Part shown: positions 3,566 through 60,386 of the stretch, piece by piece
How the letters are laid out: every line of letters begins with the position of its first letter
Numbering within the stretch: the stretch's first letter is position 1
Sequence record: PZ386972.1
DNA from: a phage
Length of the DNA stretch: 64,000 nucleotides
Reading direction: 5' to 3' (one strand)
Position numbers and translations under genes: made by a program
Notes under the pieces: model-generated
Databases searched by the model: none
Told to the model about the DNA's origin: nothing
What the model saw: the letters and a program-made list of their open reading frames with translations, nothing else

Positions 3566-4198
3566 ATGACACAAGCTGCTATTGACTATAACAAGTTAAA
3601 ATCAGCACCGGTTCATTTAGATGCTTATATTAAATCTATTGATAGCGAATCCAAAGAGGGTGTTGTAAAAATACGTGGATTCGCTAATACAATTAGTAAA
3701 GATCGCGCTGGTGATGTAATCCCTGCTTCGGCATGGAAAACATCTAATGCACTTGCTAACTACATGAAAAACCCGATTATTCTTTTCGGACACGACCATC
3801 GTCGTCCAATCGGCAAGTGTATTGATCTTAACCCTACTGAAATGGGTCTCGAAATCGAATGCGAGATCTATGAAAGTTCTGATCCGGCTATCTTTTCACT
3901 AATTAAAAACGGTGTACTGAAAACTTTTAGTATCGGATTCCGCTGCCTAGATGCAGAGTGGGATGAAGCTACTGATATATTTATTATTAAAGATTTAGAA
4001 CTATACGAAGTTTCGGTAGTTTCTGTACCTTGTAATCAGGACTCGACCTTCAATCTCGCTAAGAGCATGAATGGTCATGATTATACTGAATGGCGTAAAT
4101 CTTTTACTGCAATAAGTTCTAAAGCTGTCCCAGCTCAAGAACGTAATCTTTCTGAACTAGAAAAACTTGCGATAGCTTTAGGCTACGTTAAAGAATAA
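3566..4198 (+). CDS. prohead maturation protease
   Basis: 210-aa ORF between decoration and capsid genes; size and position of an HK97-type prohead protease. Confidence 0.75.
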   Translation: MTQAAIDYNKLKSAPVHLDAYIKSIDSESKEGVVKIRGFANTISKDRAGDVIPASAWKTSNALANYMKNPIILFGHDHRRPIGKCIDLNPTEMGLEIECEIYESSDPAIFSLIKNGVLKTFSIGFRCLDAEWDEATDIFIIKDLELYEVSVVSVPCNQDSTFNLAKSMNGHDYTEWRKSFTAISSKAVPAQERNLSELEKLAIALGYVKE

Positions 4199-14393: not shown

Positions 14394-14422
14394 TTGATAA
14401 AATTTTCCAATACTATTATAAT
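14394..14422 (+). promoter_or_regulatory. sigma70-consensus promoter (TTGATA, 17 bp, TATAAT) inside late operon, upstream of distal tail gene
   Basis: hexamers and spacing read directly; followed by AAAGAGGAGAAA RBS and ATG at 14450. Confidence 0.55.
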
Positions 14423-14449
14423 ATTGTTATTAAAGAGGAGAAATTAACT

Positions 14450-15064
14450 ATGAGACTACCAGATCCATACACGAACCCAGAATACCCAGGGTTAGGTTTT
14501 GAAAGCGTCAACGTAGTAGATAATGACCCTATGATTCGTGATGAATTACCTAATGGTAAAGTCAAAGAGGTTAAAATATCTGCTCAATACTGGGGAATTA
14601 ATATCTCATACCCGGAACTTTTCCCAGATGAATATGCGTTCCTAGATTCTAAAATTTTAGAATATAAAAGAACTGGAGATTATCTAGAAGTACTTCTACC
14701 TCAGTATGAAGCATTTAGAGTACGTGGTGATACTAAAAGTGTTAATATACCAGCAGGACAGAAAGGTTCCCAGATTATACTAAATACTAATGGAACCTTA
14801 ATAGGACTACCAAAAGCTGGAGACCTATTTAAGTTATCCAGTCACCCAAAAGTCTATAAAATAACAAACTTTACTAGCTCAGGAAATGTATGGAGCTTAT
14901 CCCTATACCCTGACCTATTTATTACTACTACGGGTAGTGAAAAACCAGTTTTTAATGGTATCCTATTTAGAACTAAGCTAATGAATGCTGATTCTTTTGG
15001 TTCTACATTAAATAACAATGGTACTTACTCTGGTATTTCACTTTCCTTGAGGGAAAGTCTATGA
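14450..15064 (+). CDS. distal tail protein (Dit, pb9-like)
   Basis: 204-aa ORF directly downstream of tape measure, upstream of large baseplate protein. Confidence 0.55.
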   Translation: MRLPDPYTNPEYPGLGFESVNVVDNDPMIRDELPNGKVKEVKISAQYWGINISYPELFPDEYAFLDSKILEYKRTGDYLEVLLPQYEAFRVRGDTKSVNIPAGQKGSQIILNTNGTLIGLPKAGDLFKLSSHPKVYKITNFTSSGNVWSLSLYPDLFITTTGSEKPVFNGILFRTKLMNADSFGSTLNNNGTYSGISLSLRESL

Positions 15065-26146: not shown

Positions 26147-27985
26147 TTATTCTAAGTAGGAAAATCCTTCTGCATCTTTTTTGACAGTAATCTTATGAGC
26201 TAATGGATGCGTATGCCCATGAGAAACAATGATAGAATTTAGACTTTCTTCCTCATTTAATAGTTCAACGAGAGTATCAAGTCCTTTCGTATCAATAAAG
26301 CTAATTACTTCATCAAGGAATAGAAGATTAATATTAACTTTACTAATAGATGTTAACAGCATACGAATAGCTAACAGGGTTGCTAGATTAATTCGACTTT
26401 GCTGACCAGTAGAGCAGTTCTCCATACTGGTACGGTTTCCATCATTGAAGATTACTACTTGTAACTTCGTTTCATCAAGTTCAAATCCAAGTGCGAATTT
26501 ACCGCCAGTCATAATGGAAAGGTATTTATTAATTAGTTCTTCAAATACTTTCACACTATGCTCTAGTTTATACCCCACCAGATTTTTCAAAGCAGCAATC
26601 AGAATATCGAGATCAGCAACAGCTTCTGATACTTCATTTAATTTGGAAGTAATCTCGGACATTTCTGCTTCAGCTTTCTCAATCTGTTCTAGTTTCGCTT
26701 TATATTTTGCATTGGCTAATTCGACATTTGCATTATGCTCTTTGGCAGTTGCAACCTTAGAGCGACCATCAGCGATTTCCTGTTCTAATTGTCGGATTTG
26801 CACCTGTAGGATTTGCACATTGAGTTCTTCAAAAGAAGCATCACTCATTGAATTTTTGAACTCGTCTCTAGCTACCACTGCCTTATCCAAAGCATCCTTT
26901 GCTCTAGTATACGCAATGTACTCAAGTTGTTCTTTCTTCAACTGTTCTAGCTTAGCTTCAAGAGATTGCTTCTCTTTGAACAGAGGATCATATTCTGTTC
27001 TAGCCATATCCATTGCTTTTTGAGCAGCAGTTGTATCTAGATGAGTACCACAAGTAGGACATTCAGTATTTGAAGCCTCTTGCTTGAACTTCTGATAACG
27101 TTTCTTAACTTCGCCAGCACGTGAGGTCACAATAGTTAGGTCACGCGTAACACTTGAGATCTCTTCGTTTTGGTCAGTGGGCGCAGGCAGATTTTTGAAA
27201 GGCTCAAAAGATTGTTCGGCAACTTGTACAGCTTTGTCCAAATTACGCAACTTAGTAATATTAGCCTCTTGAGACTTGGCTAATGCCGCCTTAATTTTCG
27301 ATTCAGTAAGTTCTTGTGCTAATGGCTCTTCATCAAACTCCGGTACTTCTACAGGTTCCTGCAAAGTTCCTAGATTATTTTTTCCATTAAGGATTTTCGT
27401 AATTACAGCCATTTGGCCCTGCAAATTATTTAAGGTATTTGCTATTTCTTTACGGTCCGCCTTAATAGTTTCCGACATTTCTTTGTATTGCTCTTGATTG
27501 AACAAGTTAACAAGAAAAGCCTTACGTGTTGCATCTGTTGCTTTTAGAAAGTCTAGATTGGAACCCACTGATTGATAAATTAGTTTGGTGAATGTTTGAA
27601 AATCACCGCCCATAATCTCTTCAATCATCTTGTATGTTTGGGTTGCCGTATGTCCACTAATATCTTCTCCATTCTTAATTAGTGTAACCTTAGCAGTTGA
27701 TTTAACTACTTTATGCAATTCATACTCATCATCATCCTTTGAAAAGTAAGCGTGCATATCGTATTCTTTCTTAGGGGTATTCCAAGAGAACAATGCATCC
27801 TTCTTGATACCTCGAGAGTTCTTATTATAAAACAATTCCTCGATAACCGTAGCGATGGTGGATTTCCCTAGCCCGTTGCCACCAATTAGTTGAGTAACTG
27901 GATTCTTATCGAAATGAATTACGATGTCCTTACCATAAGACATAACGTTACTAAATTTTAGTGTCTTAATTGTAATCTTTGACAT
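26147..27985 (-). CDS. SbcC/Rad50-like recombination ATPase
   Basis: Walker A GGNGLGKST, long coiled-coil middle, C-terminal LLFLDEV Walker B; start placed at MSKITIKTLKFSNV, the six-frame ORF extends to 28066. Confidence 0.8.
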   Translation of the reverse strand: MSKITIKTLKFSNVMSYGKDIVIHFDKNPVTQLIGGNGLGKSTIATVIEELFYNKNSRGIKKDALFSWNTPKKEYDMHAYFSKDDDEYELHKVVKSTAKVTLIKNGEDISGHTATQTYKMIEEIMGGDFQTFTKLIYQSVGSNLDFLKATDATRKAFLVNLFNQEQYKEMSETIKADRKEIANTLNNLQGQMAVITKILNGKNNLGTLQEPVEVPEFDEEPLAQELTESKIKAALAKSQEANITKLRNLDKAVQVAEQSFEPFKNLPAPTDQNEEISSVTRDLTIVTSRAGEVKKRYQKFKQEASNTECPTCGTHLDTTAAQKAMDMARTEYDPLFKEKQSLEAKLEQLKKEQLEYIAYTRAKDALDKAVVARDEFKNSMSDASFEELNVQILQVQIRQLEQEIADGRSKVATAKEHNANVELANAKYKAKLEQIEKAEAEMSEITSKLNEVSEAVADLDILIAALKNLVGYKLEHSVKVFEELINKYLSIMTGGKFALGFELDETKLQVVIFNDGNRTSMENCSTGQQSRINLATLLAIRMLLTSISKVNINLLFLDEVISFIDTKGLDTLVELLNEEESLNSIIVSHGHTHPLAHKITVKKDAEGFSYLE

Positions 27986-28943
27986 ATTTCGCAGCTCTAG
28001 CCAAGATTCTATCAATGTCGCCTTGAGATAGCTTCTCGACTTCACGGAAGTAAAGTTCAAGTTCACCTAACATATCAAGATCAACAAGATTTAACTTAGC
28101 GTCTTTAGTAACTCGATGGTTAATCTTCTTATCTAATAAATCAGAGTCTTTGATAGACTTTAATTGAACAACGTCACCAGTAACTTCGTAGACTACACGA
28201 TCATAATCACTAGGTTCCATCTCTTCACCAGCTCCGATTGTTTTACGAATCAGTTGTGGTAAATCACCTAGTTCAATCCATTCTACTTTTAATGTGTCGG
28301 TATCAACGATAAAGCAACCATTTGTACCTTTTGTGCGTTCTCTATGGAACGATGTAGTTAATGGAGACCCTGGGTAGAGGAGTCTAGTAGACCCGATAGT
28401 CTGGCTATTAGTATAAGAATGTAAATCACCAGCAATTACAGTATCATAACAGTTGTACTTAGTTAGATCAATTTCTGGTTTTACATGTGGAGGGATTTCA
28501 CCGCGAACATGCGTGAAACATAGTTTTGATTCAGATGGTTTCCACTTAGATTTATGGATTTCGTCATATGGAACAATATCAAATTCAGGGGAACGATATG
28601 GTTTGGTAATTACTTCCCACTTACCACTCGTTACTTTATTAATAACTCCTGCATAATGATATAGACATGAAATCGTTTTAGTTAACATTTCATGATTTCC
28701 AGTAAAGATTTTACCTGGGTGGTCAAGTCTTGACATGAACTGTTCAAGCAGTTCTATTTCTTCTGACGACGGGTCGGAATGGTCAAATAAATCACCACCA
28801 ATAATATGAAGATCACAGTTATGATTATGGAATACATCATTTAAACGGCCTCCCAACATTAAGAATCTCTTCTTTTGCCATTCTTTGGGAATTTTGTCCT
28901 GCCCAAGTTTTATATGATGATCTGCGCTAAAGAGTATTTTCAT
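27966..28943 (-). CDS. SbcD/Mre11-like nuclease
   Basis: 325 aa; N-terminal ILFSADHH and GDLFD metallophosphatase motifs; directly upstream of SbcC-like gene. Confidence 0.8.
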   Translation of the reverse strand: MKILFSADHHIKLGQDKIPKEWQKKRFLMLGGRLNDVFHNHNCDLHIIGGDLFDHSDPSSEEIELLEQFMSRLDHPGKIFTGNHEMLTKTISCLYHYAGVINKVTSGKWEVITKPYRSPEFDIVPYDEIHKSKWKPSESKLCFTHVRGEIPPHVKPEIDLTKYNCYDTVIAGDLHSYTNSQTIGSTRLLYPGSPLTTSFHRERTKGTNGCFIVDTDTLKVEWIELGDLPQLIRKTIGAGEEMEPSDYDRVVYEVTGDVVQLKSIKDSDLLDKKINHRVTKDAKLNLVDLDMLGELELYFREVEKLSQGDIDRILARAAKYVKDYN

Positions 28944-29455
28944 CTTTGTGCATACTTTCGCTTTATCTCTTGAATATCTATTCCTTGTTTCAGTTCATTC
29001 AAAACTTGGTCTAAGATGCCCTCGAGATCTTTTCGTTCTTTACTAGCCATTATATGGTAGTGTTTTTTATTATAGTACAAACGTAGAGTATATGTACTTG
29101 ATTTGGCATTGTAGCTTATATTCCCAGAATAATTTTCTATATTCTGCATGTTAGATCGGTGATCACCATTTTTGAGATTGTCCCACCTATTATCGTGTCG
29201 TATGCGATTATCATGGTCAATTTCTTCTGGCATCTCCCCGGTTTGCATTAACCAAATAAGTCTGTGCAACCTATATTTAGTTCCAAATACCCTAGCGTCT
29301 AAATATCCAGACTGCTTAGAGGGAGTTCCCACAGGTTTTCCTACACAATCTTTAGGAAGCCCATTTGACCATACTTTATAGGTTACAATACCTGTATCTG
29401 GGTCATATGAGAATCTACGATGACATTCATCGTACAACTTAACTAAATCATCCAT
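28940..29455 (-). CDS. HNH-type homing endonuclease (HNH_3-like)
   Basis: 171 aa; YDPDTG ... IDHDNRIRHDNRWDNL HNH core; starts immediately after a terminator with no RBS. Confidence 0.7.
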   Translation of the reverse strand: MDDLVKLYDECHRRFSYDPDTGIVTYKVWSNGLPKDCVGKPVGTPSKQSGYLDARVFGTKYRLHRLIWLMQTGEMPEEIDHDNRIRHDNRWDNLKNGDHRSNMQNIENYSGNISYNAKSSTYTLRLYYNKKHYHIMASKERKDLEGILDQVLNELKQGIDIQEIKRKYAQR

Positions 29456-51975: not shown

Positions 51976-52087
51976 CACGCACTCGTGCACGCGATATAAA
52001 ATGATTATCTAGTATCACACATCTCACGTTAAAAGCAAGCAAATTTTTTATTTAAATGCAATATCATAGGCTTATTTAAAATTGTAG

Positions 52088-52116
52088 TTGCTTTTTACTG
52101 TATATATTGGTATAAT
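52088..52116 (+). promoter_or_regulatory. early promoter (TTGCTT, 17 bp, TATAAT), second upstream of phoH
   Basis: read directly. Confidence 0.6.
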
Positions 52117-52189
52117 ATATTTGTAAGTTGATAAACAAGATCTTTTTGTTGATCCTCTGTTAGCGAAGTACACTATAGGAGTGTTATTT

Positions 52190-52942
52190 ATGGGAAAAGC
52201 ACGTCAAAAAAGAGAGAACCGCAATGGTTCAAGAAAGCGTGGCAACAAATATGAGAATAACGTAATTCAGGCTGATTTTTCTAATGATTACGCTAACCCA
52301 GTTGCTAAATCCCTAGTAGGTAAAAACCGCGAGCAAAAATCATATATCAATATGATCAAGAACAACACAGTGACTGTGGGTATCGGTGAGCCAGGTACTG
52401 GTAAAACCTTTATTCCGTCCGTTCTTGCAGCTCAGGAACTCGTAGACATTCACTCAGATATTGAGCAAGTGATCCTCGTACGTCCTAATGAACCTCTAGG
52501 TAAGTCTCTTGGTATGCTTCCTGGTGATCTAGCAGAAAAGCTAGAGCCTTGGTTGGAGCCAATAGCTGATGGTATGAAATGGGCCATCGGCGAACATGCC
52601 TATAAGGGATATGTCGAACGTCAGAAAATTAAATTTTTGGCTATCGAACATGCTCGTGGCAGAACTTTCAACAACTCCTATGTAATTGTCGATGAAGCTC
52701 AGAATATTTCCGTTGAGGCAATGATTTGTCTCCTAACTCGTGTAGGACAAGACTGCCGTTTAATTATCTGCGGAGATATAGCTCAGAAAGACATTAAAGG
52801 TGACTCAGGTCTAGCACTCCTTATGGAAGTCTATGAGAAATACGAAAATGCCCCATTCTCAATGATCGAATTGATTGATAACGTTCGTTCTGTTGAGTCT
52901 AAAGCATTCTATGACATCTTTAAAGACATGGGGAAGGTGTAA
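52190..52942 (+). CDS. phoH: PhoH-like ATPase
   Basis: Walker A GEPGTGKT, Walker B VIVDEAQN; ATG at 52190 after GGAG RBS, the six-frame ORF starts at GTG 52181. Confidence 0.85.
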   Translation: MGKARQKRENRNGSRKRGNKYENNVIQADFSNDYANPVAKSLVGKNREQKSYINMIKNNTVTVGIGEPGTGKTFIPSVLAAQELVDIHSDIEQVILVRPNEPLGKSLGMLPGDLAEKLEPWLEPIADGMKWAIGEHAYKGYVERQKIKFLAIEHARGRTFNNSYVIVDEAQNISVEAMICLLTRVGQDCRLIICGDIAQKDIKGDSGLALLMEVYEKYENAPFSMIELIDNVRSVESKAFYDIFKDMGKV

Positions 52943-52943
52943 T

Positions 52944-53165
52944 ATGGGAAACGTCGTTCATCTGAGCCGTAAAACTAAAATACATCGTACTTCACTGAGT
53001 GCTGCTAATATGATTACACGTAAGGAAGGGGAAGAAAGTCCTAAGACAACCCTAGCGTGGAAAATTGTAACCTCAAATCCAAATAAACCATTCAATTATA
53101 ACGAGCTGAGCACCTCCATAGATATTCTATTAAAAGAAGTAGCTAGAGCTAAAGTAATTGAATAA
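52944..53165 (+). CDS. hypothetical small protein
   Basis: 74 aa from ATG at 52944 with AAGGTG RBS; the six-frame ORF 52875 start overlaps phoH. Confidence 0.4.
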   Translation: MGNVVHLSRKTKIHRTSLSAANMITRKEGEESPKTTLAWKIVTSNPNKPFNYNELSTSIDILLKEVARAKVIE

Positions 53166-53240
53166 GCTAAAAAGCTAGACTGGTAATATACAGGGCCTGG
53201 GTATGAAAATACTCGGGCCTTTTCTATCAGAAAATTTTAT

Positions 53241-53269
53241 TTGCCTAATGACCGATAATAAAGTAGAAT
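53241..53269 (+). promoter_or_regulatory. promoter (TTGCCT, 17 bp, TAGAAT) upstream of nrdA
   Basis: read directly. Confidence 0.45.
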
Positions 53270-53307
53270 ATTCCTTAAATCCTGATAACTATAAAAAGGA
53301 AAGCCAA

Positions 53308-55638
53308 ATGAGCCATCGCATTGAAAAAGTAATTAAACGTGACGGTACTGTAGAAGACTTTGCTCCTGAAAAACTCAATGGTTGGGCAGAGTATGGTTGC
53401 AAAACAGTTGATGTAAGTTGGTCCGCCATTACTATGGCTGCTCAAAAAACGCTACCTAAAGGGGTTGTAGATTCCGACACTCTGATGGACGCATTAATTA
53501 AAGCTGCTGAAAGTCTTATCAAAGATAACCCAGCATACGATGTGCCAGCAAAGGAATTACGTCTTGCGCAAATGCGTAAACGCCTTTATGACTCTTTCGA
53601 ACCGCCTTCTCTACGCTTCTTCCATGACCACATGGTTAGCGTAGGTGCATGGGAAGACATGAGTGCATGGATTACCGATGAGCAATTTGAAGCTCTGAAT
53701 CAGGTTATCGACCATGATCGTGACCGTCTTTTTACTAGTGGTGGGCTGAAGCAGTTCTTTGATAAGTATTCCCGTCGTAACATAGCCACTGGTGAAATTT
53801 ACGAAACTCCGCAGTTTGCCTACATGGGTATGGCAATGGCGATGCTATCTCAACCTAACTGGACAATTCTAGATGCAATCGACCTCTACAACGCAATGTC
53901 ACTCCACAAAATCAACGTTCCTACGCCGCCACTGGTTGGTCTGCGCTCTAGTGACCGTGGATTTGCTAGTTGCTGCCTCGTGGATTCCACTGACACGTTG
54001 GATTCAATCGACACCGCCGAGCACATCGTCTTCAAAATGGTCGCAGCCAGAGCGGGAATCGGGTATCATCTTGAAAGCCGATCAATTGCTGATCCGGTGC
54101 GAAATGGGGCATTCCCGCATTCCGGAAAACTGCCATATTATCGACACATTGACCGCTCAGTAAAGGCCAATACTCAGCAAACTCGTGGTGGTTCTGCTAC
54201 AGTATCTTATCCATACTTCGACCCTGAAATCATTCAATTGATGCAGGTTAAGCAACAACGTGCTACAGATGAGAATAAAATCGATAAGATGGATTATTCT
54301 CTGAGCTTTAACAACCTTTTGTTAAAACGTTATCTTAAAAACGAAGATATTACGCTAATGTCATACTTCTATGCTCCAGAAGTTCATGAAGCGTTTTATA
54401 GTGATGACGAGGCTAAATTTGAAGAAATCTACGTGGCAGCGGAGAAACGTGTGGCATCTCTTACAAAGATCGACCACGAAGGAAAAACAGTTCCTGCAGC
54501 TCCTAAAGTCTCTGCAAAAGAAATCCTAGATACTTGGCTACGTATCCGAATGGAAACAGGACGTATGTATGCTCACCACATTGGAGAATCTAATCGTCAC
54601 GGTAACTTCCTTGATCCGATCCGTATGACAAACCTTTGTGTTGAAATTACTCAGCCTACACGCCCGTTCCATCACATTACAGAGCTGTACAAGACAAAAG
54701 AGCAGCTTGATCAAATGAAGCCGGAGGATATTGGTGAAGTATCTCTGTGTAACTTAGGTGGTGTTGTACTTGGACGCATGGAATCTCTGGCTGAGTGGGA
54801 AAAAACTTGCTACATCCTTCTGAAATTTGTTGACACAATTATTGAAATTCAGGATTATCCGTTCCCAACTATGGAATATACGGCTAAGAAACGTCGTAAT
54901 GTTGGTATTGGCCTGATGAACGCAGCGGGTGCAATGGCAGCAGAAGGTCTGGCTTACGAAGGTATTGAAGCCCGTAACTGGATTCACCGTGAGGCTGAAA
55001 AACTGTCTTACTTCCTGCATAAAGCCTCTGTACGCCTGGCTAAAGAACAGGGTGCATGTGAGTGGTTTGATCGTACTAAACCATCTAAAGGAATTCTAGT
55101 AATCGACACGTATAAGAAAACTGTTGATGAACTGGTATCCGTAGGTCTAGAAATGGATTGGGAGTCTCTACGTGCAGATATTCTGAAATATGGTATGCGT
55201 AACTCTGTTCTGACTGCTCAGATGCCGGGAGAAAGTTCTTCTGTTCTGCTAGGAGTTACTAACTCTATTGAACCGCCTCGTAAGATTGTATCTATCAAGG
55301 GTAGTGCAGTGAATAAAGTAATTGCAATTGCTCCGGGTGCAACCGATTGGGAAACGTTAATGAGCTATAAACTGGCTTATGATGTAGATCGTATCGAGTG
55401 GATCAAATGGGTAGCAACTATGCAAAAATTCTTCAGTCAGTCTATCAGTACGAATATGTACTATGACTACACCAAGTTTGAGAATGAAATCATTCCTGGC
55501 CCAGTAGTAGTTCGTGATTTCATGACTGCTGTTAAGTATGGGTGGAAAACTTTCTACTATGCAAACTTCAATACCGCAAATGGTGGAGGTGCTGGAGAAG
55601 AAGCAGCCGGTTGTGCATCCGGTGGTTGTACTATTTAA
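53308..55638 (+). CDS. nrdA: ribonucleoside-diphosphate reductase alpha subunit (class Ia)
   Basis: ATP-cone VIKRDGTVEDF at N-terminus; C-terminal CASGGC; start at MSHRIEK after AAAAAGGAAAG, the six-frame ORF starts upstream at 53203. Confidence 0.9.
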   Translation: MSHRIEKVIKRDGTVEDFAPEKLNGWAEYGCKTVDVSWSAITMAAQKTLPKGVVDSDTLMDALIKAAESLIKDNPAYDVPAKELRLAQMRKRLYDSFEPPSLRFFHDHMVSVGAWEDMSAWITDEQFEALNQVIDHDRDRLFTSGGLKQFFDKYSRRNIATGEIYETPQFAYMGMAMAMLSQPNWTILDAIDLYNAMSLHKINVPTPPLVGLRSSDRGFASCCLVDSTDTLDSIDTAEHIVFKMVAARAGIGYHLESRSIADPVRNGAFPHSGKLPYYRHIDRSVKANTQQTRGGSATVSYPYFDPEIIQLMQVKQQRATDENKIDKMDYSLSFNNLLLKRYLKNEDITLMSYFYAPEVHEAFYSDDEAKFEEIYVAAEKRVASLTKIDHEGKTVPAAPKVSAKEILDTWLRIRMETGRMYAHHIGESNRHGNFLDPIRMTNLCVEITQPTRPFHHITELYKTKEQLDQMKPEDIGEVSLCNLGGVVLGRMESLAEWEKTCYILLKFVDTIIEIQDYPFPTMEYTAKKRRNVGIGLMNAAGAMAAEGLAYEGIEARNWIHREAEKLSYFLHKASVRLAKEQGACEWFDRTKPSKGILVIDTYKKTVDELVSVGLEMDWESLRADILKYGMRNSVLTAQMPGESSSVLLGVTNSIEPPRKIVSIKGSAVNKVIAIAPGATDWETLMSYKLAYDVDRIEWIKWVATMQKFFSQSISTNMYYDYTKFENEIIPGPVVVRDFMTAVKYGWKTFYYANFNTANGGGAGEEAAGCASGGCTI

Positions 55639-55647
55639 TAAAAACAA

Positions 55648-55675
55648 GGAGATCTTCGGGTCTCCTTTTTCTTTG
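55648..55675 (+). terminator. hairpin terminator after nrdA
   Basis: GGAGATC...GGTCTCC stem followed by TTTTTCTTT. Confidence 0.6.
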
Positions 55676-55684
55676 AAATTTTAC

Positions 55685-55713
55685 TTGCTAATCGCTACCA
55701 GATTTGCTATAAT
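55685..55713 (+). promoter_or_regulatory. early promoter (TTGCTA, 17 bp, TATAAT) directly abutting homing endonuclease ATG
   Basis: -10 hexamer ends 6 nt before ATG at 55720; implies leaderless or read-through expression. Confidence 0.55.
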
Positions 55714-55719
55714 ATTTAT

Positions 55720-56217
55720 ATGAAATTAACACAGAGTAGATTAAAAGAGCTAATCTCCTATGATCCTGAAACTGGTGAATTTACCTGGCTTCCAAGAAAA
55801 AATTTAGCAAAGCATTTATGGAACGCTAAAGCAGGAACCTACGATAAGCTAGGGTATCTTCGTATAAAAGTGGAAGGAGTTCAATACTTAGCTCATCGCC
55901 TAGCCTTCTTGTATATGACTGGAGAAATACCAGAAGGAAAAATTGACCATAAAGATACTAATCCGTCCAATTGTGCCTGGAATAATCTACGTGAAGCCAC
56001 GAGTTCCCAAAATTCTATGAACTCATGCGCAAGAGTGGATAACCAGCTTGGAATGAAAAATATTCGTGTAAAAGGCAATTCATTTCAGGTTAGGATAGGC
56101 AAAGACGGTAAATCTTATACAAAAACTTTAAAAACCATAGAAGAAGCTATAGAGTGGAGAGATACCAAACTACTAGAACTTCATGGGGACTTTGCAAACA
56201 ACGGAGAAGCTAAATGA
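55720..56217 (+). CDS. HNH-type homing endonuclease inserted between nrdA and nrdB
   Basis: 165 aa; YDPETGEFTWL and GKIDHKDTNPSNCAWNNL HNH_3-like core; paralog-like to 28940-29455. Confidence 0.7.
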   Translation: MKLTQSRLKELISYDPETGEFTWLPRKNLAKHLWNAKAGTYDKLGYLRIKVEGVQYLAHRLAFLYMTGEIPEGKIDHKDTNPSNCAWNNLREATSSQNSMNSCARVDNQLGMKNIRVKGNSFQVRIGKDGKSYTKTLKTIEEAIEWRDTKLLELHGDFANNGEAK

Positions 56218-57359
56218 CTACTTTACTTAACTTAGAATGGGATCATACTAACGCTGATCTTTTCCTCGGTGATTCTTTGGGTATCGCAGATTATGTGCGT
56301 GTGGCACATCCCGAACTGGAGCGATTAGCTCTGTTGCAGCGTTCCCAATTCTGGACTGAAACTGAAATTAGTCTTGAAGCTGATAAAAAGCAGTGGGGTA
56401 ATCTCCCGCGTGAAATTCAGGAAATTACACTCCTGAACTTAGCATGGCAAACTCAAACTGATTCCTTTATCAGTCGTGCCCCTGAAGCAGCTATTATGCC
56501 GCTTGTAAGTCGTCCAGAATTGGAAGGTATGCTCAAGCAGTGGAGCTACTTCGAAGATCTGCATAGCCGTGCATATAGTAATATTATTCGTAATGTGCTG
56601 ACTGATCCAGCAGAATTTATTGATTCTGTAACCAAAAACCAGGAAGCATTCGCACGCATCGCTGATTCTGTTGAACTATTCGATGAACTGTATCAGTTAG
56701 GTCAGTATTTCATCGCAGTACGCGATCATCGTGGTGACAATACATATCCAGAAACTGAGTTCCCTGAAGTTAAACGTGAAACTCAGGCTAAACTATTAGA
56801 CGCTTACTTTGCGATCTATGGTCTGGAAGCAATGCAGTTTTACGCATCCTTTGCATGTACCTTTGCATTAGCAGAGAACGATATTCTGCAAGGTATTGCT
56901 AAAAATCTGCAATTAATCGCTAAAGATGAAGCTCTGCACACTCAGATGTCCAAAGCAATCATCCAGATTATGTTCCAGCAGTTTGACAAAGATCTGGTGA
57001 ATGAAGCAGTGGCTAAAGCACCAGCACAGCTCCTGAAAACTCTGAAAACTGAAATTGAATGGGGTCATTTCATTTTCAAAGGTCGTAGTCTGATTGGCTT
57101 GAATGCAGAACTTCTAGAAGAATATCTGTACTTTGTGGGGCGTAATGCATTTATGCACATCGGTGTAGAATGGCCTAGTCATTTACCAGTAATCACCAAG
57201 AACCCCATTCCGTGGATCATGAACTGGCTGGATACCACTTCTTTACAGCCTGCTCCACAAGAAATCCAGATTGGTGCAGCATATCGTGTAGGTCAGGTAA
57301 CTGAGACCTCTACTGATACTCTGAAAGATCTGGGTAATGAATTTGGAGATTTCTTATGA
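56214..57359 (+). CDS. nrdB: ribonucleoside-diphosphate reductase beta subunit
   Basis: 381 aa; di-iron and tyrosyl radical region (EAMQFYASF...AKDEALH). Confidence 0.9.
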   Translation: MTTLLNLEWDHTNADLFLGDSLGIADYVRVAHPELERLALLQRSQFWTETEISLEADKKQWGNLPREIQEITLLNLAWQTQTDSFISRAPEAAIMPLVSRPELEGMLKQWSYFEDLHSRAYSNIIRNVLTDPAEFIDSVTKNQEAFARIADSVELFDELYQLGQYFIAVRDHRGDNTYPETEFPEVKRETQAKLLDAYFAIYGLEAMQFYASFACTFALAENDILQGIAKNLQLIAKDEALHTQMSKAIIQIMFQQFDKDLVNEAVAKAPAQLLKTLKTEIEWGHFIFKGRSLIGLNAELLEEYLYFVGRNAFMHIGVEWPSHLPVITKNPIPWIMNWLDTTSLQPAPQEIQIGAAYRVGQVTETSTDTLKDLGNEFGDFL

Positions 57360-57889
57360 TTACAGCAATGTATGCAGTTGGGCCGAATGGAGAGTTCGGC
57401 CTCCGCGGTAAACTTCCCTGGGGTTCCTTCAAAGAAGAACTAGATGCCTTCTATTCTCAACTGGACGTGTTGAATCCAGATAACATCATCATTGGTGCTG
57501 GTACTTATTTAGCTCTTCCATACGCCGTTAGGGAACGTATGATTGGAGCTTCTGATCTATTTATTCGTGCTGATCGTCCACTGCCAGACGATATTACGCA
57601 TGATATTTACACCCCAATTTCAAAGATTGGGGATACATTACCTACTTTTCTAAAAGATCAGCAAACAGTAGTTCTAGGTGGAGCTAATCTTCTTCTAGAA
57701 ATGTACCAACATGGGCATATAGAAAGTGCTTTTGTATCTACAATCTTTAGCGAACAGAAGCTAGAGGCAGATATACACCTAGATAGTATGATACTGGATT
57801 ATAACTATGAATCCACCCGATTAGTCTATGCAGTTGGCGCAAACAGTGATAACAGCCTGCGATTTGTACAGGAATTGGTTACTTATTAA
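57356..57889 (+). CDS. dihydrofolate reductase
   Basis: 177 aa; GKLPW motif; immediately upstream of thymidylate synthase. Confidence 0.75.
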   Translation: MITAMYAVGPNGEFGLRGKLPWGSFKEELDAFYSQLDVLNPDNIIIGAGTYLALPYAVRERMIGASDLFIRADRPLPDDITHDIYTPISKIGDTLPTFLKDQQTVVLGGANLLLEMYQHGHIESAFVSTIFSEQKLEADIHLDSMILDYNYESTRLVYAVGANSDNSLRFVQELVTY

Positions 57890-58728
57890 TGCAACAATAT
57901 TTAAAAATTTTGACAGATGTAATTTTACTAGGTGAACCCCGTAATGACCGTACAGGAACAGGCACAGTTTCAATTTTTGATTCCTATGCTAAGTTCGACC
58001 TACGTGAAGGGTTCCCGGCTGTAACTACCAAACGCCTGGCCTGGAAATCAGTAGTAGGAGAACTTTTATGGTTCTTGTCTGGTTCCACAAATCTTCATGA
58101 TCTACGTGTATTCACATTCGGTCGTGACGAAGGACAGTGGACCATCTGGACTCCAAATTATGAAGACCAAGCCATAAGTATGGGGTATGATAAGGGTAAT
58201 CTAGGACCAGTATATGGTAAACAGTGGCGTAACTTTGGTGGGCGAGATCAGATTCTAGAACTTATTGAAGGACTCAAGAATAATCCTCATGGCCGCAGAC
58301 ATCTAGTTTCTGCATGGAACGTAGCTGAACTTGATAAAATGGCATTACCACCCTGTCACTACGGCTTCCAGTGCTATGTAAGTAACGAGGGATACCTAGA
58401 CCTTAAATGGACACAACGTTCTGTAGATTGTTTCCTCGGTTTACCTTTCAATATTGCTAGTTATGCTTTATTAACGCATATATTAGCAAAACTGACAGGG
58501 TTAAAACCTCGTTATCTTATCTTTAGTGGCGGTGATACTCATATCTATAATGACCACATGGAACAGGTAGAAGAACAGGTAAAACGTAAACCTCGTGCTT
58601 TACCTACTCTAGTAATGCCAGAGTTTGTAGATCTTTACGATTTATTAGAAAATAATACAGCAGCTTGGTCCTTCCAGCTTGAAGGATATGATCCGCATCC
58701 GGCTCTTAAAGCTAAAATGTCCTCTTAA
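57889..58728 (+). CDS. thyA: thymidylate synthase
   Basis: 279 aa; PPCHYGFQCYV active-site region; FNIASYALLTH. Confidence 0.9.
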   Translation: MQQYLKILTDVILLGEPRNDRTGTGTVSIFDSYAKFDLREGFPAVTTKRLAWKSVVGELLWFLSGSTNLHDLRVFTFGRDEGQWTIWTPNYEDQAISMGYDKGNLGPVYGKQWRNFGGRDQILELIEGLKNNPHGRRHLVSAWNVAELDKMALPPCHYGFQCYVSNEGYLDLKWTQRSVDCFLGLPFNIASYALLTHILAKLTGLKPRYLIFSGGDTHIYNDHMEQVEEQVKRKPRALPTLVMPEFVDLYDLLENNTAAWSFQLEGYDPHPALKAKMSS

Positions 58729-58734
58729 CTTAAA

Positions 58735-58750
58735 TAGCCCTTCGGGGCTA
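58735..58750 (+). terminator. hairpin (TAGCCC-ttcg-GGGCTA) after thyA
   Basis: stem-loop read directly; downstream tract is AT-rich rather than pure T. Confidence 0.45.
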
Positions 58751-58767
58751 TTATATTTAAATTTCAT

Positions 58768-58796
58768 TTGCTTATTTAGTGAAATCTAAATATAAT
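58768..58796 (+). promoter_or_regulatory. early promoter (TTGCTT, 17 bp, TATAAT)
   Basis: read directly; GGAGG RBS and ATG 58822 downstream. Confidence 0.6.
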
Positions 58797-58821
58797 ATAT
58801 TTTATAAATTGGAGGTATACA

Positions 58822-59103
58822 ATGATTTCAGCCAAAGAAGCTCAAGAACTTGCAGGATTAACAGAAGTACCCGCATTTCTAAAGTTTATAGAAGAAAAGA
58901 TTGTAGAAGCTGCTAAGTCTGGAAATACAGAAGTAATTATTCGAGATAATCCTTACGCTAGGTGGCTATATAATCCTAGAGAAATGCCAGGAGCAGCTAA
59001 ATCGGTACTAAAAACCTTATCGGATAAGGGGTATCATCTCTCACAATACTACCGAGAAGCCGCCTTTGTAGACATGGGTCTTAAAATTAGTTGGGAGGTA
59101 TAA
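58822..59103 (+). CDS. hypothetical protein
   Basis: 93-aa ORF. Confidence 0.45.
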   Translation: MISAKEAQELAGLTEVPAFLKFIEEKIVEAAKSGNTEVIIRDNPYARWLYNPREMPGAAKSVLKTLSDKGYHLSQYYREAAFVDMGLKISWEV

Positions 59104-59579
59104 TGTCGGTTTTCCACATTTATACAGATGGTGCTTGTAAGTCTAATCCAGGTCCAGGTGCTTGGGGTTTTATTGTCTATGATGATAACGACGATCGTTT
59201 AGGTTCTAAATCTGGATATAGTCCTAAAACTACAAATAATGAGATGGAACTCACGGCTATTGTAGAAGCTCTACGTTGGTCTGTTAAAAAAGATAATAGA
59301 CCAATTGCTATCTATACTGACTCTGCTTATTGCAAAAATGGCATGGAAAGTTGGATGTTTTCTTGGCAAAGGAAAGGCTGGAAGAAAGCAGATGGTGAAG
59401 TCCCTCTTAATCTAGAACTTTGGCAGGAAGCATTTAAATTAACACAGCAGTATATCAACTTTCACAATACTAATCCTACCTTTATTAAGGTTAAAGGACA
59501 TTCTGGTATTAGTGGTAATGAAGCTGTAGATGCATTGTGTAACACAGTTATTACTGAGGCTGAAATGGCCGAGATGTGA
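59103..59579 (+). CDS. ribonuclease H (RNase HI-like)
   Basis: IYTDGACKSNPGPGAWGF and TNNEMELTAI motifs; ATG at 59103 after GGGAGG, the six-frame ORF starts at 59091. Confidence 0.8.
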   Translation: MSVFHIYTDGACKSNPGPGAWGFIVYDDNDDRLGSKSGYSPKTTNNEMELTAIVEALRWSVKKDNRPIAIYTDSAYCKNGMESWMFSWQRKGWKKADGEVPLNLELWQEAFKLTQQYINFHNTNPTFIKVKGHSGISGNEAVDALCNTVITEAEMAEM

Positions 59580-59599
59580 TAAATAAATTAAAAATTTTC

Positions 59600-59628
59600 T
59601 TGCTTAAAGCCACCTAATTTAGTATAAT
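59600..59628 (+). promoter_or_regulatory. early promoter (TTGCTT, 17 bp, TATAAT)
   Basis: read directly; GAGGAGG RBS downstream. Confidence 0.6.
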
Positions 59629-59655
59629 ATTCGTATTGAAAGTGAGGAGGGCTTT

Positions 59656-59940
59656 ATGCGAATTTATAACTCAAATTCATTAGGATTTAAACCATTGAGA
59701 AAACGTGCACAATCACCTCGTCAAATAAGAAAGGCTAATATTGGTGAGCCAGAAACACGTCTTCCACCTCCTCCAGAACAACGTTTAGTTTATCTGGACG
59801 AAGAATTAGCTGAACGCGAAAGAAAAGCTCAAGAAGAGATTGAGCGTAAGAAAATGTGTACTGCCCCAGCCTACTCCAAAGGGGCTTATCAGTATATCTA
59901 TACAGCCGAAGAGGCCAAAGATGCGGGGCGTAAAAAATGA
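59656..59940 (+). CDS. hypothetical protein
   Basis: 94-aa ORF co-transcribed with NADAR gene. Confidence 0.4.
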   Translation: MRIYNSNSLGFKPLRKRAQSPRQIRKANIGEPETRLPPPPEQRLVYLDEELAERERKAQEEIERKKMCTAPAYSKGAYQYIYTAEEAKDAGRKK

Positions 59941-60386
59941 AGATTACTGAATTTAAAGGTGCTTATAGTTTCTTATCTAACTTTTATTTATCACCAATTA
60001 CTTTCGAATATCTGAATGAAATATGGCATGCTGATACTGTAGAACATGCTTTTCAGGCTATGAAATCCGACCAAAAAGATGATGTAGCTCATGTACTACG
60101 CTCCCTAAATGCAGGAGTTGCTAAACGTAGAGGACGTAAATTAATTCTACGCTCTGACTGGGATAAGGTAAAAGATGATGTAATGTTAGAGCTTTTACGG
60201 TTAAAGTTTGCAATCCCTGATTTGAGAGACAAACTGTTAGCAACAGAAAATGCAACTTTGATTGAAGGAAATACCTGGGGGGATACATATTGGGGTGTTT
60301 GCCGAGGCATCGGGGATAATACTTTAGGAGTTCTTTTGATGCAGGTAAGGTCTGAAATTAAAAGAAGCTTACAGTTAATAAATTAA
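59937..60386 (+). CDS. NADAR-family (YbiA-like) protein; putative ADP-ribose N-glycosidase
   Basis: 149 aa; YSFLSNFY, EHAFQAMK, LLATENATLIEGNTWGDTYWG align along the length of E. coli YbiA. Confidence 0.7.
   Translation: MKITEFKGAYSFLSNFYLSPITFEYLNEIWHADTVEHAFQAMKSDQKDDVAHVLRSLNAGVAKRRGRKLILRSDWDKVKDDVMLELLRLKFAIPDLRDKLLATENATLIEGNTWGDTYWGVCRGIGDNTLGVLLMQVRSEIKRSLQLIN

Follow-up and report, generated by a model that had tools for sequence, protein, structure and literature searches.

How does a homing endonuclease gene begin its translation when its start codon lies only a few nucleotides (nt) beyond the -10 hexamer of the promoter that should express it, and where does such a promoter come from? 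The question is raised by a 64,000-nt stretch of phage DNA (record PZ386972.1; "the window" below means this whole stretch), in which a free-standing HNH homing endonuclease gene (HEG) occupies positions 55720-56217 of the + strand between nrdA and nrdB, the genes for the large and small subunits of a class Ia ribonucleotide reductase. The window comes from a T5-like phage of the family Demerecviridae and is 39% G+C; over positions 55000-57000 its top DNA matches are Salmonella phages SP1a, SPC35 and Th1 and Escherichia phage AKFV33 (96-97% identity). We consider it very probable that this HEG has taken over the nrdB promoter and shares an operon with nrdB, and the best explanation overall, which is probably correct, adds a leaderless HEG mRNA and homing into the 5′ part of nrdB.

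The HEG encodes 165 amino acids from an ATG codon and is, as the original prediction had it, an HNH_3-type gene standing free between nrdA (53203-55638 as its maximal open reading frame (ORF), + strand; Ribonuc_red_lgC, E=2e-119) and nrdB (56214-57359, + strand; Ribonuc_red_sm, E=5e-36). Its product matches Pfam HNH_3 (PF13392) with E=4.4e-16 and 58.7 bits (cut-off 24.8), and PHROG 99 "HNH endonuclease" over its full length (residues 1-163, E=6.6e-60). Alignment to I-HmuI places the catalytic motif, DHKDTNPSNCAWNNLREATSSQN, at residues 76-98 (55945-56013, + strand), with D76, H77, N89 and N98 opposite the I-HmuI DH...N...N residues (DHKD..NLR..N). The original prediction turned on conservation of this motif, and the four residues are invariant across all four homologous alleles that occupy this site in related phages, even though these alleles share only 30-67% identity. 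The HEG is thus described as encoding an HNH endonuclease with intact catalytic residues, which is predicted to nick or cut DNA. An AP2-like DNA-binding domain was expected in the conserved C-terminal part (KNIR..G..FQVR..GK.Y.KT..LEEAIE.RD) and found no support; Pfam searches at E<=5 gave nothing credible in the C-terminal part of any of the four alleles.

The allele in the window is called type A here, and its 165-codon ORF is intact in all 29 type A records. Among carriers the ratio of nonsynonymous to synonymous substitution (dN/dS) is 0.04-0.13, indicating strong purifying selection, and the corresponding polymorphism ratio (pN/pS) of codons 1-65 is 0.03-0.04. The N-terminus of the HEG protein aligns with the N-termini of the other three alleles. 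An internal start at Met66 was considered and rejected on both grounds, the low pN/pS of codons 1-65 and the N-terminal alignment. No conserved in-frame start was found between codons 1 and 64; the only in-frame start before codon 64, a GTG at codon 51, is present in the window and absent from AKFV33. Given the dN/dS, the pN/pS of codons 1-65 and the N-terminal alignment, the predicted start of translation is the ATG at 55720.

The gap between nrdA and the HEG is 81 nt and contains two signals, a terminator followed by a promoter. The intrinsic terminator of nrdA (55646-55674, + strand; annotated as a terminator in AKFV33) has a 9-bp stem and a UUCG loop followed by TTTTTCTTT; the stem (55646-55667) has a folding energy of -12.5 kcal/mol, none of 200 shuffled sequences folds as well, and a T-run follows it. 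Position 55648, which had been given as the left end of the HEG feature, falls inside this hairpin and outside the gene. The promoter (55685-55713, + strand; annotated in AKFV33 and T5) is of the T5 early type, with -35 TTGCTA at 55685-55690, a 17-nt spacer and an extended -10 TGcTATAAT at 55705-55713. The published consensus for T5-type promoters is TTGCTw-N17-18-TATAATA (PMC3326045), and the intergenic TTGCTA-17-TGcTATAATA fits the T5 early sigma-70 consensus and is conserved among relatives; it is the sole match in 52000-60000 with 10 of 12 consensus bases and the extended -10 TG. Simple counting was rejected as a measure of its significance, since promoter-like matches as a class are not enriched over shuffled sequence (16 found, 20.4 expected) and TATAAT-N4-9-ATG occurs in the window at the chance rate (nine found, 9.3 expected). 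The case for the promoter therefore rests on its fit to the T5 consensus, its position after the terminator and its invariance in relatives. The terminator is unchanged in all related phages, whether the HEG is present or absent, and the whole terminator-promoter block of about 100 nt is invariant in every related phage aligned, while the adjoining coding DNA varies.

Comparison with phages that lack the HEG indicates where this promoter came from. In phage mar004NP2 and 13 further HEG-less loci the terminator and promoter are identical base for base, and between TATAAT and the nrdB ATG lies a 31-nt leader, ATTCCTGAAATAGTGAGAAAGAGGAAAATCA, with a Shine-Dalgarno (SD) sequence in it. The promoter, being identical in HEG-less phages, is therefore the resident nrdB promoter. 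In the window the segment 55716-56213 (+ strand) replaces the 29-nt native nrdB leader of these phages (TCCTGAAATAGTGAGAAAGAGGAAAATCA); the left edge of the cassette lies 2-3 nt after the -10 hexamer and the right edge lies at the nrdB ATG. The native SD, AAGAGGAAAA, is replaced by a GGAGAA (56203-56208, + strand) within the 3′ end of the HEG, and the HEG stop codon overlaps the nrdB start (ATGA). No promoter-like site was found inside the HEG. By this comparison the HEG and nrdB form one operon under the old nrdB promoter, which agrees with the original proposal that a single promoter serves both genes.

The junction between nrdA and nrdB is contained in 447 phage records. Type A occurs in only 29-32 of them, in one copy each and always at the nrdA|nrdB site, and about 300 (roughly two thirds) lack all four alleles, with the 31-nt leader present instead at each of these loci that was examined. 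The comparison of related phages that had been suggested as a check thus finds the HEG variably present (29 of 447 records for type A) at one fixed site in otherwise collinear T5-like phages. Both nrdA and nrdB are complete ORFs whether the insert is present or absent; there is no intron at the locus, and the target that had been termed "intron-less" is properly the HEG-less allele.

The consequence of this capture for translation of the HEG is best seen at its 5′ end. Exactly 6 nt (ATTTAT, 55714-55719) separate TATAAT from the HEG ATG (55720-55722, + strand), just as first noted, and there is no SD sequence. The A of this ATG is the seventh nucleotide after the -10 hexamer, the predicted +1. 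In choosing a start site, sigma-70 RNA polymerase prefers the seventh base after the -10 element, and an A preceded by a T is the preferred context. The same geometry is present in all nine of the type A carriers sampled (nine GenBank loci), where the six bases are ATCTAT, ATTTAT or ATCTAC and an SD is likewise absent. An IMG/VR scan for other spacings between the -10 and the ATG (GCTATAAT-N2-14-ATGAAATTAACACA) returned AKFV33 alone. Among the 35 promoter-like sites of the window, the recognizable T5-type ones have 22-64-nt leaders with an SD, typically TATAAT-N6/7-ATAAATT(T)GA... followed by the leader, and the HEG promoter is the only recognizable T5-type promoter that abuts the start codon of a real gene. 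The HEG's ATGAAATT starts exactly where the conserved ATAAATT block stands in the other window promoters; TAAATT is called the "+1 region" in the AKFV33 paper (PMC3326045).

In Escherichia coli, leaderless translation requires an AUG that lies at the 5′ end of the message or very close to it, works poorly with GUG or UUG and is inhibited by secondary structure (PMC9031893). In the minimum-energy fold of the predicted HEG mRNA the first 18 nt are unpaired, and type A is the only allele of the four that has an ATG, so that AUG start, absent SD and unstructured 5′ end are all present together. RNA that reads through from nrdA must pass the strong terminator and offers the HEG no SD. The most likely course of events is that RNA polymerase initiates at the A of the HEG ATG and gives a 5′-AUG leaderless mRNA; ribosomes would then begin the HEG by leaderless, 70S-type initiation, inefficiently and on transcripts of the nrdB promoter alone, and translation of nrdB would proceed normally from its own SD. 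The leaderless transcript envisaged in the original prediction is in agreement with the geometry, the missing SD, the ATG and the open 5′ end. As sequence geometry, the leaderless arrangement is strictly conserved among carriers and unique among the recognizable T5-type promoters of the window, and we favor leaderless translation, at somewhat better than even chances, as the main route by which the HEG would be expressed.

The site carries, besides its empty state, four homologous HNH alleles of shared architecture that have 30-67% mutual identity and an invariant DH...N...NLRE...N motif, and their start regions differ in an informative way. Allele A (that of the window, SPC35 and AKFV33; 29 records) has AT(C/T)TA(T/C) after TATAAT, no leader and an ATG start. 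Allele B (T5 hegH/P-TflVIII and DT57C; 75 records) has ATCTCCATTAGTTAAGGAGATTAGTT after TATAAT and a TTG start, allele C (SH9 and HZ_ZJUN2; 34 records) has ATCTCTATATTAAGGAGATATACT and a GTG start, and allele D (phiLLS; three records) has ATCTTCATTAATTAGGGAGATATAAT and a TTG start. Each of B, C and D thus combines a leader and a good SD with a weak start codon, and in each the SD can pair in a hairpin of the form ATCTYY...RRGAGAT (6-8 bp; -8.4, -7.5 and -6.3 kcal/mol, respectively). The 5′ arm of these hairpins fills the 6-nt interval from the -10 hexamer to the predicted +1, and the hairpin vanishes when the RNA fold begins at the predicted +1; the hairpin should therefore be possible only on RNA that comes from upstream. 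It lies at 4061-4090 of locus L004 (T5), 2975-3000 of L005 (DT57C), about 570-597 of L025 and about 815-841 of L029, and its stem is retained through G-U wobble changes (ATCTCC, ATCTCT and ATCTTC). An origin of the leaderless form by simple deletion from a phiLLS-like leader (the proteins are 67% identical) was considered and set aside, as the 5′ ends cannot be aligned clearly enough at the nucleotide level to single out a particular event.

The distribution of type A bears on its mobility. Its carriers span two genera, Tequintavirus (AKFV33, SPC35 and SE11) and Epseptimavirus (SB13, falkor, fuchur, SmurfNell and STWB21). From the intergenic region through the HEG to about nt 190 of nrdB, SPC35 differs from SB13, falkor, fuchur and SmurfNell at only four to seven positions, whereas from nrdB nt 192 onward a mismatch occurs every 9-10 nt (about 90% identity). 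The HEG and nrdB nt 1-190 are thus about 99% identical between Tequintavirus and Epseptimavirus carriers while the remaining nrdB is about 90% identical, and this difference argues for recent horizontal spread. Carriers differ from HEG-less phages by 29-34 fixed differences in nrdB nt 15-185, almost all of them synonymous; the terminator-promoter block and the upstream nrdA examined are free of such differences, and nrdB after nt 185 is essentially so. The HEG-linked haplotype, which travels with the HEG across genera, comprises the first 185 nt or so of nrdB (56214-56398, + strand) and ends in a CC-to-GG change that gives P62G in NrdB. The shared right-hand edge therefore suggests a mobile unit made of the HEG and the first ~185 nt of nrdB (about 55716-56400). 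The T5-type nrdB haplotype has a double substitution of its own, CAA to GCT (Gln42 to Ala), near the end of a shorter tract.

T4 SegG and MobE cut at a distance, inside the neighboring gene (PMC2988022). By analogy with these enzymes, and from the haplotype structure of nrdB, we infer a candidate cleavage site near nrdB nt 170-195 and a protection of carriers by the linked haplotype. The enzyme would probably nick or cut the 5′ part of an HEG-less nrdB, near nt 185-192 in the best explanation, repair would then copy the HEG and with it the initial ~185 nt of nrdB, and the variant nrdB tract may protect the carrier. Combining the four start regions with the tracts gives a broader scheme, which we offer tentatively as slightly short of an even chance: all four alleles would limit translation to transcripts of the captured promoter and do so in two ways, B, C and D by a start-spanning SD-masking hairpin and A by a true 5′-AUG leaderless mRNA, and the ends of the linked nrdB tracts would locate the targets, near codon 62 for A and near codon 42 for the T5 allele. 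An I-TevI-style operator was sought by comparing the promoter/HEG 5′ junction with the leader and first 230 nt of HEG-less nrdB, and no signal emerged: the highest local score, 9, did not exceed the mean for shuffled sequence, 9.1.

Two further observations concern this part of nrdB. Locus L027 (IMGVR_UViG_2974597248) is an empty site: it lacks an HEG, its leader is the native one of 31 nt, and it carries both the P62G and the Q42A signatures; its nrdB nt 1-190 are mosaic, with the T5-type haplotype at nt 1-130 (Q42A) and the window type at nt 160-185 (P62G). The locus may represent a resistant site that persisted once its HEG had been lost, or a recombinant; the pattern is what either would be expected to show. 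Among carriers the first 185 nt of nrdB (window 56214-56398) are 97-100% conserved, more than the HEG itself; in STWB21 the HEG is 90-92%, nrdB nt 1-185 97-98% and the remaining nrdB 86-89% identical, and synonymous sites in the first 185 nt of nrdB look constrained.

Several points weigh against the combination of leaderless translation and homing into nrdB. One old recombination event, its linkage inherited ever since, could account for the 185-nt tract with no need for target-site immunity. A transcription start only 2 nt downstream of the predicted one, at a G, would drop the AUG from the transcript, and no mapped start for the nrdB promoter of any phage was found in the literature. Leaderless mRNAs are rare in enterobacteria (PMC9031893). 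A second HNH paralogue in the window (28940-29455, - strand) likewise has neither an SD nor a promoter, and SD-less initiation on longer RNAs may be usual for HNH genes. One alternative is that translation of the HEG uses an RNA that has a leader but no SD, made by read-through of the nrdA terminator or by a start a few nt upstream, with ribosomal protein S1 recruiting the 30S subunit through an AU-rich, unstructured leader; the closeness of the -10 to the ATG would then be incidental. The 30 nt before the ATG are indeed very AU-rich and could support SD-independent initiation on read-through RNA, the second HNH gene begins 5 nt after a terminator T-run, and half of the free-standing endonuclease genes of T4 have no discernible translation initiation region (PMC2988022). 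Yet a strong terminator (-12.5 kcal/mol with its T-run) stands 45 nt upstream, the minimum-energy fold of the read-through RNA leaves the AUG region partly paired, the 6-nt spacing is strictly conserved while the six bases themselves vary, and only type A has an ATG, the leadered alleles starting with TTG or GTG. We consider this alternative unlikely, though it deserves more weight than the two that follow.

The other alternatives concern the state of the gene rather than the start of its message. The HEG might be a domesticated endonuclease in which homing has ceased, retained for its tie to the SD and translation of nrdB or for some other service to the phage, such as DNA nicking or competition with co-infecting phages. 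Its strong purifying selection would fit this, as would the position of the nrdB SD inside the HEG and the ATGA overlap, which mean that a clean deletion would harm nrdB; embedded host signals are considered to favor retention of such genes in T4 (PMC2988022). Against domestication, the two thirds of related phages that have the native leader and no HEG indicate that the gene is dispensable, and an HEG that is about 99% identical across genera next to an nrdB that is about 90% identical points to recent horizontal spread; we think domestication improbable. It is very improbable that the HEG is an untranslated, decaying remnant that serves as a long 5′ leader of nrdB: the SD is absent and selfish endonuclease genes are expected to decay once fixed, but the ORF is intact in 29 of 29 records, the low dN/dS extends over the N-terminal 65 codons and the catalytic residues are invariant. 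A mobile HEG that has captured the nrdB promoter and is translated from a leaderless mRNA thus remains the preferred explanation.

Other features of the window may be mentioned briefly. The genes 3′ of nrdB encode dihydrofolate reductase, thymidylate synthase and RNase H, and T5 has the same gene order. The nrdA start at 53203 (as annotated in T5 and AKFV33) is probably over-extended; the likelier start is the ATG at 53308, which gives 776 amino acids, the length annotated for the nrdA product of DT57C and phiLLS, and which is preceded by a promoter-like TTGCCT-17-TAGAAT (53241-53269) and the SD AAAGGAAAG. The last ~600 nt of nrdA (55000-55640 in the window, and its relatives) are mosaic, with blocks of 10-19 mismatches per 50 nt, and its 3′ end has 3-4-nt length differences in STWB21 and falkor; this mosaicism bears no relation to the presence or absence of the HEG, and the neighboring ~100-nt terminator-promoter block is invariant. 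The second HNH_3 gene (28940-29455, - strand) encodes 171 amino acids (Pfam E=7e-11) and is about 33% identical to the HEG; a terminator hairpin (GAGGGGCTTCGGCCCCTTTCTTTTTAACTTATG) precedes the gene, whose ATG is found 5 nt beyond the T-run, and at the other end the stop codon overlaps the start of an SbcD/Mre11-like gene (27966-28943). The leader at 14394-14452 (+ strand), ATTAAAGAGGAGAAATTAACTATG, is presumably the "RBSII" of vectors. The PN25 promoter and leader of expression vectors (TTGCTT..TATAATAGATTCATAAATTTGAGAGAGGAGTT) occur at 43363-43300 (- strand), where the -35 to -10 region is 43363-43335; this site, one of the T5-type promoters of the window, is the classical PN25 sequence and matches primer sequences in PMC4447248.

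As an element the HEG is not new: it belongs to a familiar class, dozens of T5-like genomes carry an annotation for it, and a published description dates from 2012. As far as our literature search reached, three features seem to have gone unreported: the absence of a leader in type A, the four-allele series with its start-spanning SD-masking hairpins, and the sharp bounds of the nrdB segment that moves with the HEG. The search for mapped T5 transcription starts, leaderless T5 genes and leaderless homing endonucleases of coliphages returned nothing relevant, and neither a leaderless coliphage homing endonuclease nor an SD-masking hairpin in T5 was found described there; the sole "leaderless HNH" proposal found concerns mycobacteriophages. 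An empty state and four start designs at one site amount to a natural experiment on the low, timed expression of a selfish nuclease, and the locus could be used to ask if a very strong phage promoter can support leaderless initiation in E. coli or Salmonella. If leaderless translation does occur here, it is an instance of a mode that is rare in enterobacteria. For annotation, the lesson is that a missing SD here is not a gene-calling error. The position of the HEG on the nrdB promoter, together with its hold on the nrdB ribosome binding site, makes its clean loss costly, and the sharp edge of the co-transferred nrdB segment provides a specific guess at the cleavage site.

The closest relatives are the "H-N-H endonuclease" genes of AKFV33 (orf096), SPC35 (SPC35_0087) and SP1a, which are the same allele: they share 95-98% DNA identity, the site, the 6-nt spacing, the terminator and the promoter, and their ATCTAT before the ATG in place of the window's ATTTAT is an immaterial difference. 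In GenBank, the AKFV33 entry marks both the terminator and the promoter and lists the gene as "orf096 putative homing endonuclease." The published description of AKFV33 places ORF96 between nrdA and nrdB, reports 42% identity to T5 P-TflVIII, likens it to T4 mobE and states that it "merits further investigation"; the missing leader goes unmentioned (PMC3326045). T5 hegH (T5.095, putative H-N-H endonuclease P-TflVIII; F-TflVIII in DT57C) occupies the same site behind the same promoter, and the T5 record annotates it with the promoter abutting the gene. Its protein has the same architecture (42% identical), and it too supplies the nrdB SD, but it has a 27-nt leader, an AAGGAG SD and a TTG start where type A is leaderless with an ATG, and its hairpin (ATCTCC/GGAGAT, -8.4 kcal/mol), whose 5′ arm lies upstream of the predicted start site, masks the SD.

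The gap between nrdA and nrdB was rightly recognized at the outset as a homing endonuclease site, since by description T4 mobE, like T5 hegH, is a free-standing HNH gene in the same gap. T4 mobE targets nrdB and spreads with flanking sequence (PMC2988022; PMC2790892). It has no promoter of its own and is read from nrdA promoters, translationally coupled to nrdA (UAAUGA) and provided with an internal terminator, and the nrdB middle promoter lies downstream of it (PMC2988022); the HEG of the window differs in lying behind the nrdB promoter and in being coupled to nrdB, not to nrdA. Alleles B, C and D resemble T4 I-TevI, I-TevII, I-TevIII and segB and Aeh1 mobE, which have an SD-masking hairpin with a promoter inside it that frees the ribosome binding site (PMC2988022). 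The T4 review's list of such solutions does not include a leaderless arrangement (PMC2988022); type A, if it is read correctly here, would differ from the hairpin systems by achieving promoter-specific translation through the absence of a leader. The closest solved structure by sequence is I-HmuI (PDB 1U3E), the intron-encoded HNH nicking endonuclease of phage SPO1, whose similarity is weak (E=1e-3) and spans HEG residues 40-136, including DHKD...NLR...N; it differs in being intron-encoded and in having a C-terminal DNA-binding region unlike that of the HEG.

Leaderless mRNAs of E. coli and its phages, for example that of lambda cI from PRM, have a -10 element, 6-7 nt and then an AUG that is the first transcribed base, with no SD. 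The type A start has this same layout, the starts of the lambda cI type being experimentally mapped and that of the HEG predicted, and the HEG would differ from them in being the leaderless first cistron of an operon that also holds an SD-led gene, nrdB.

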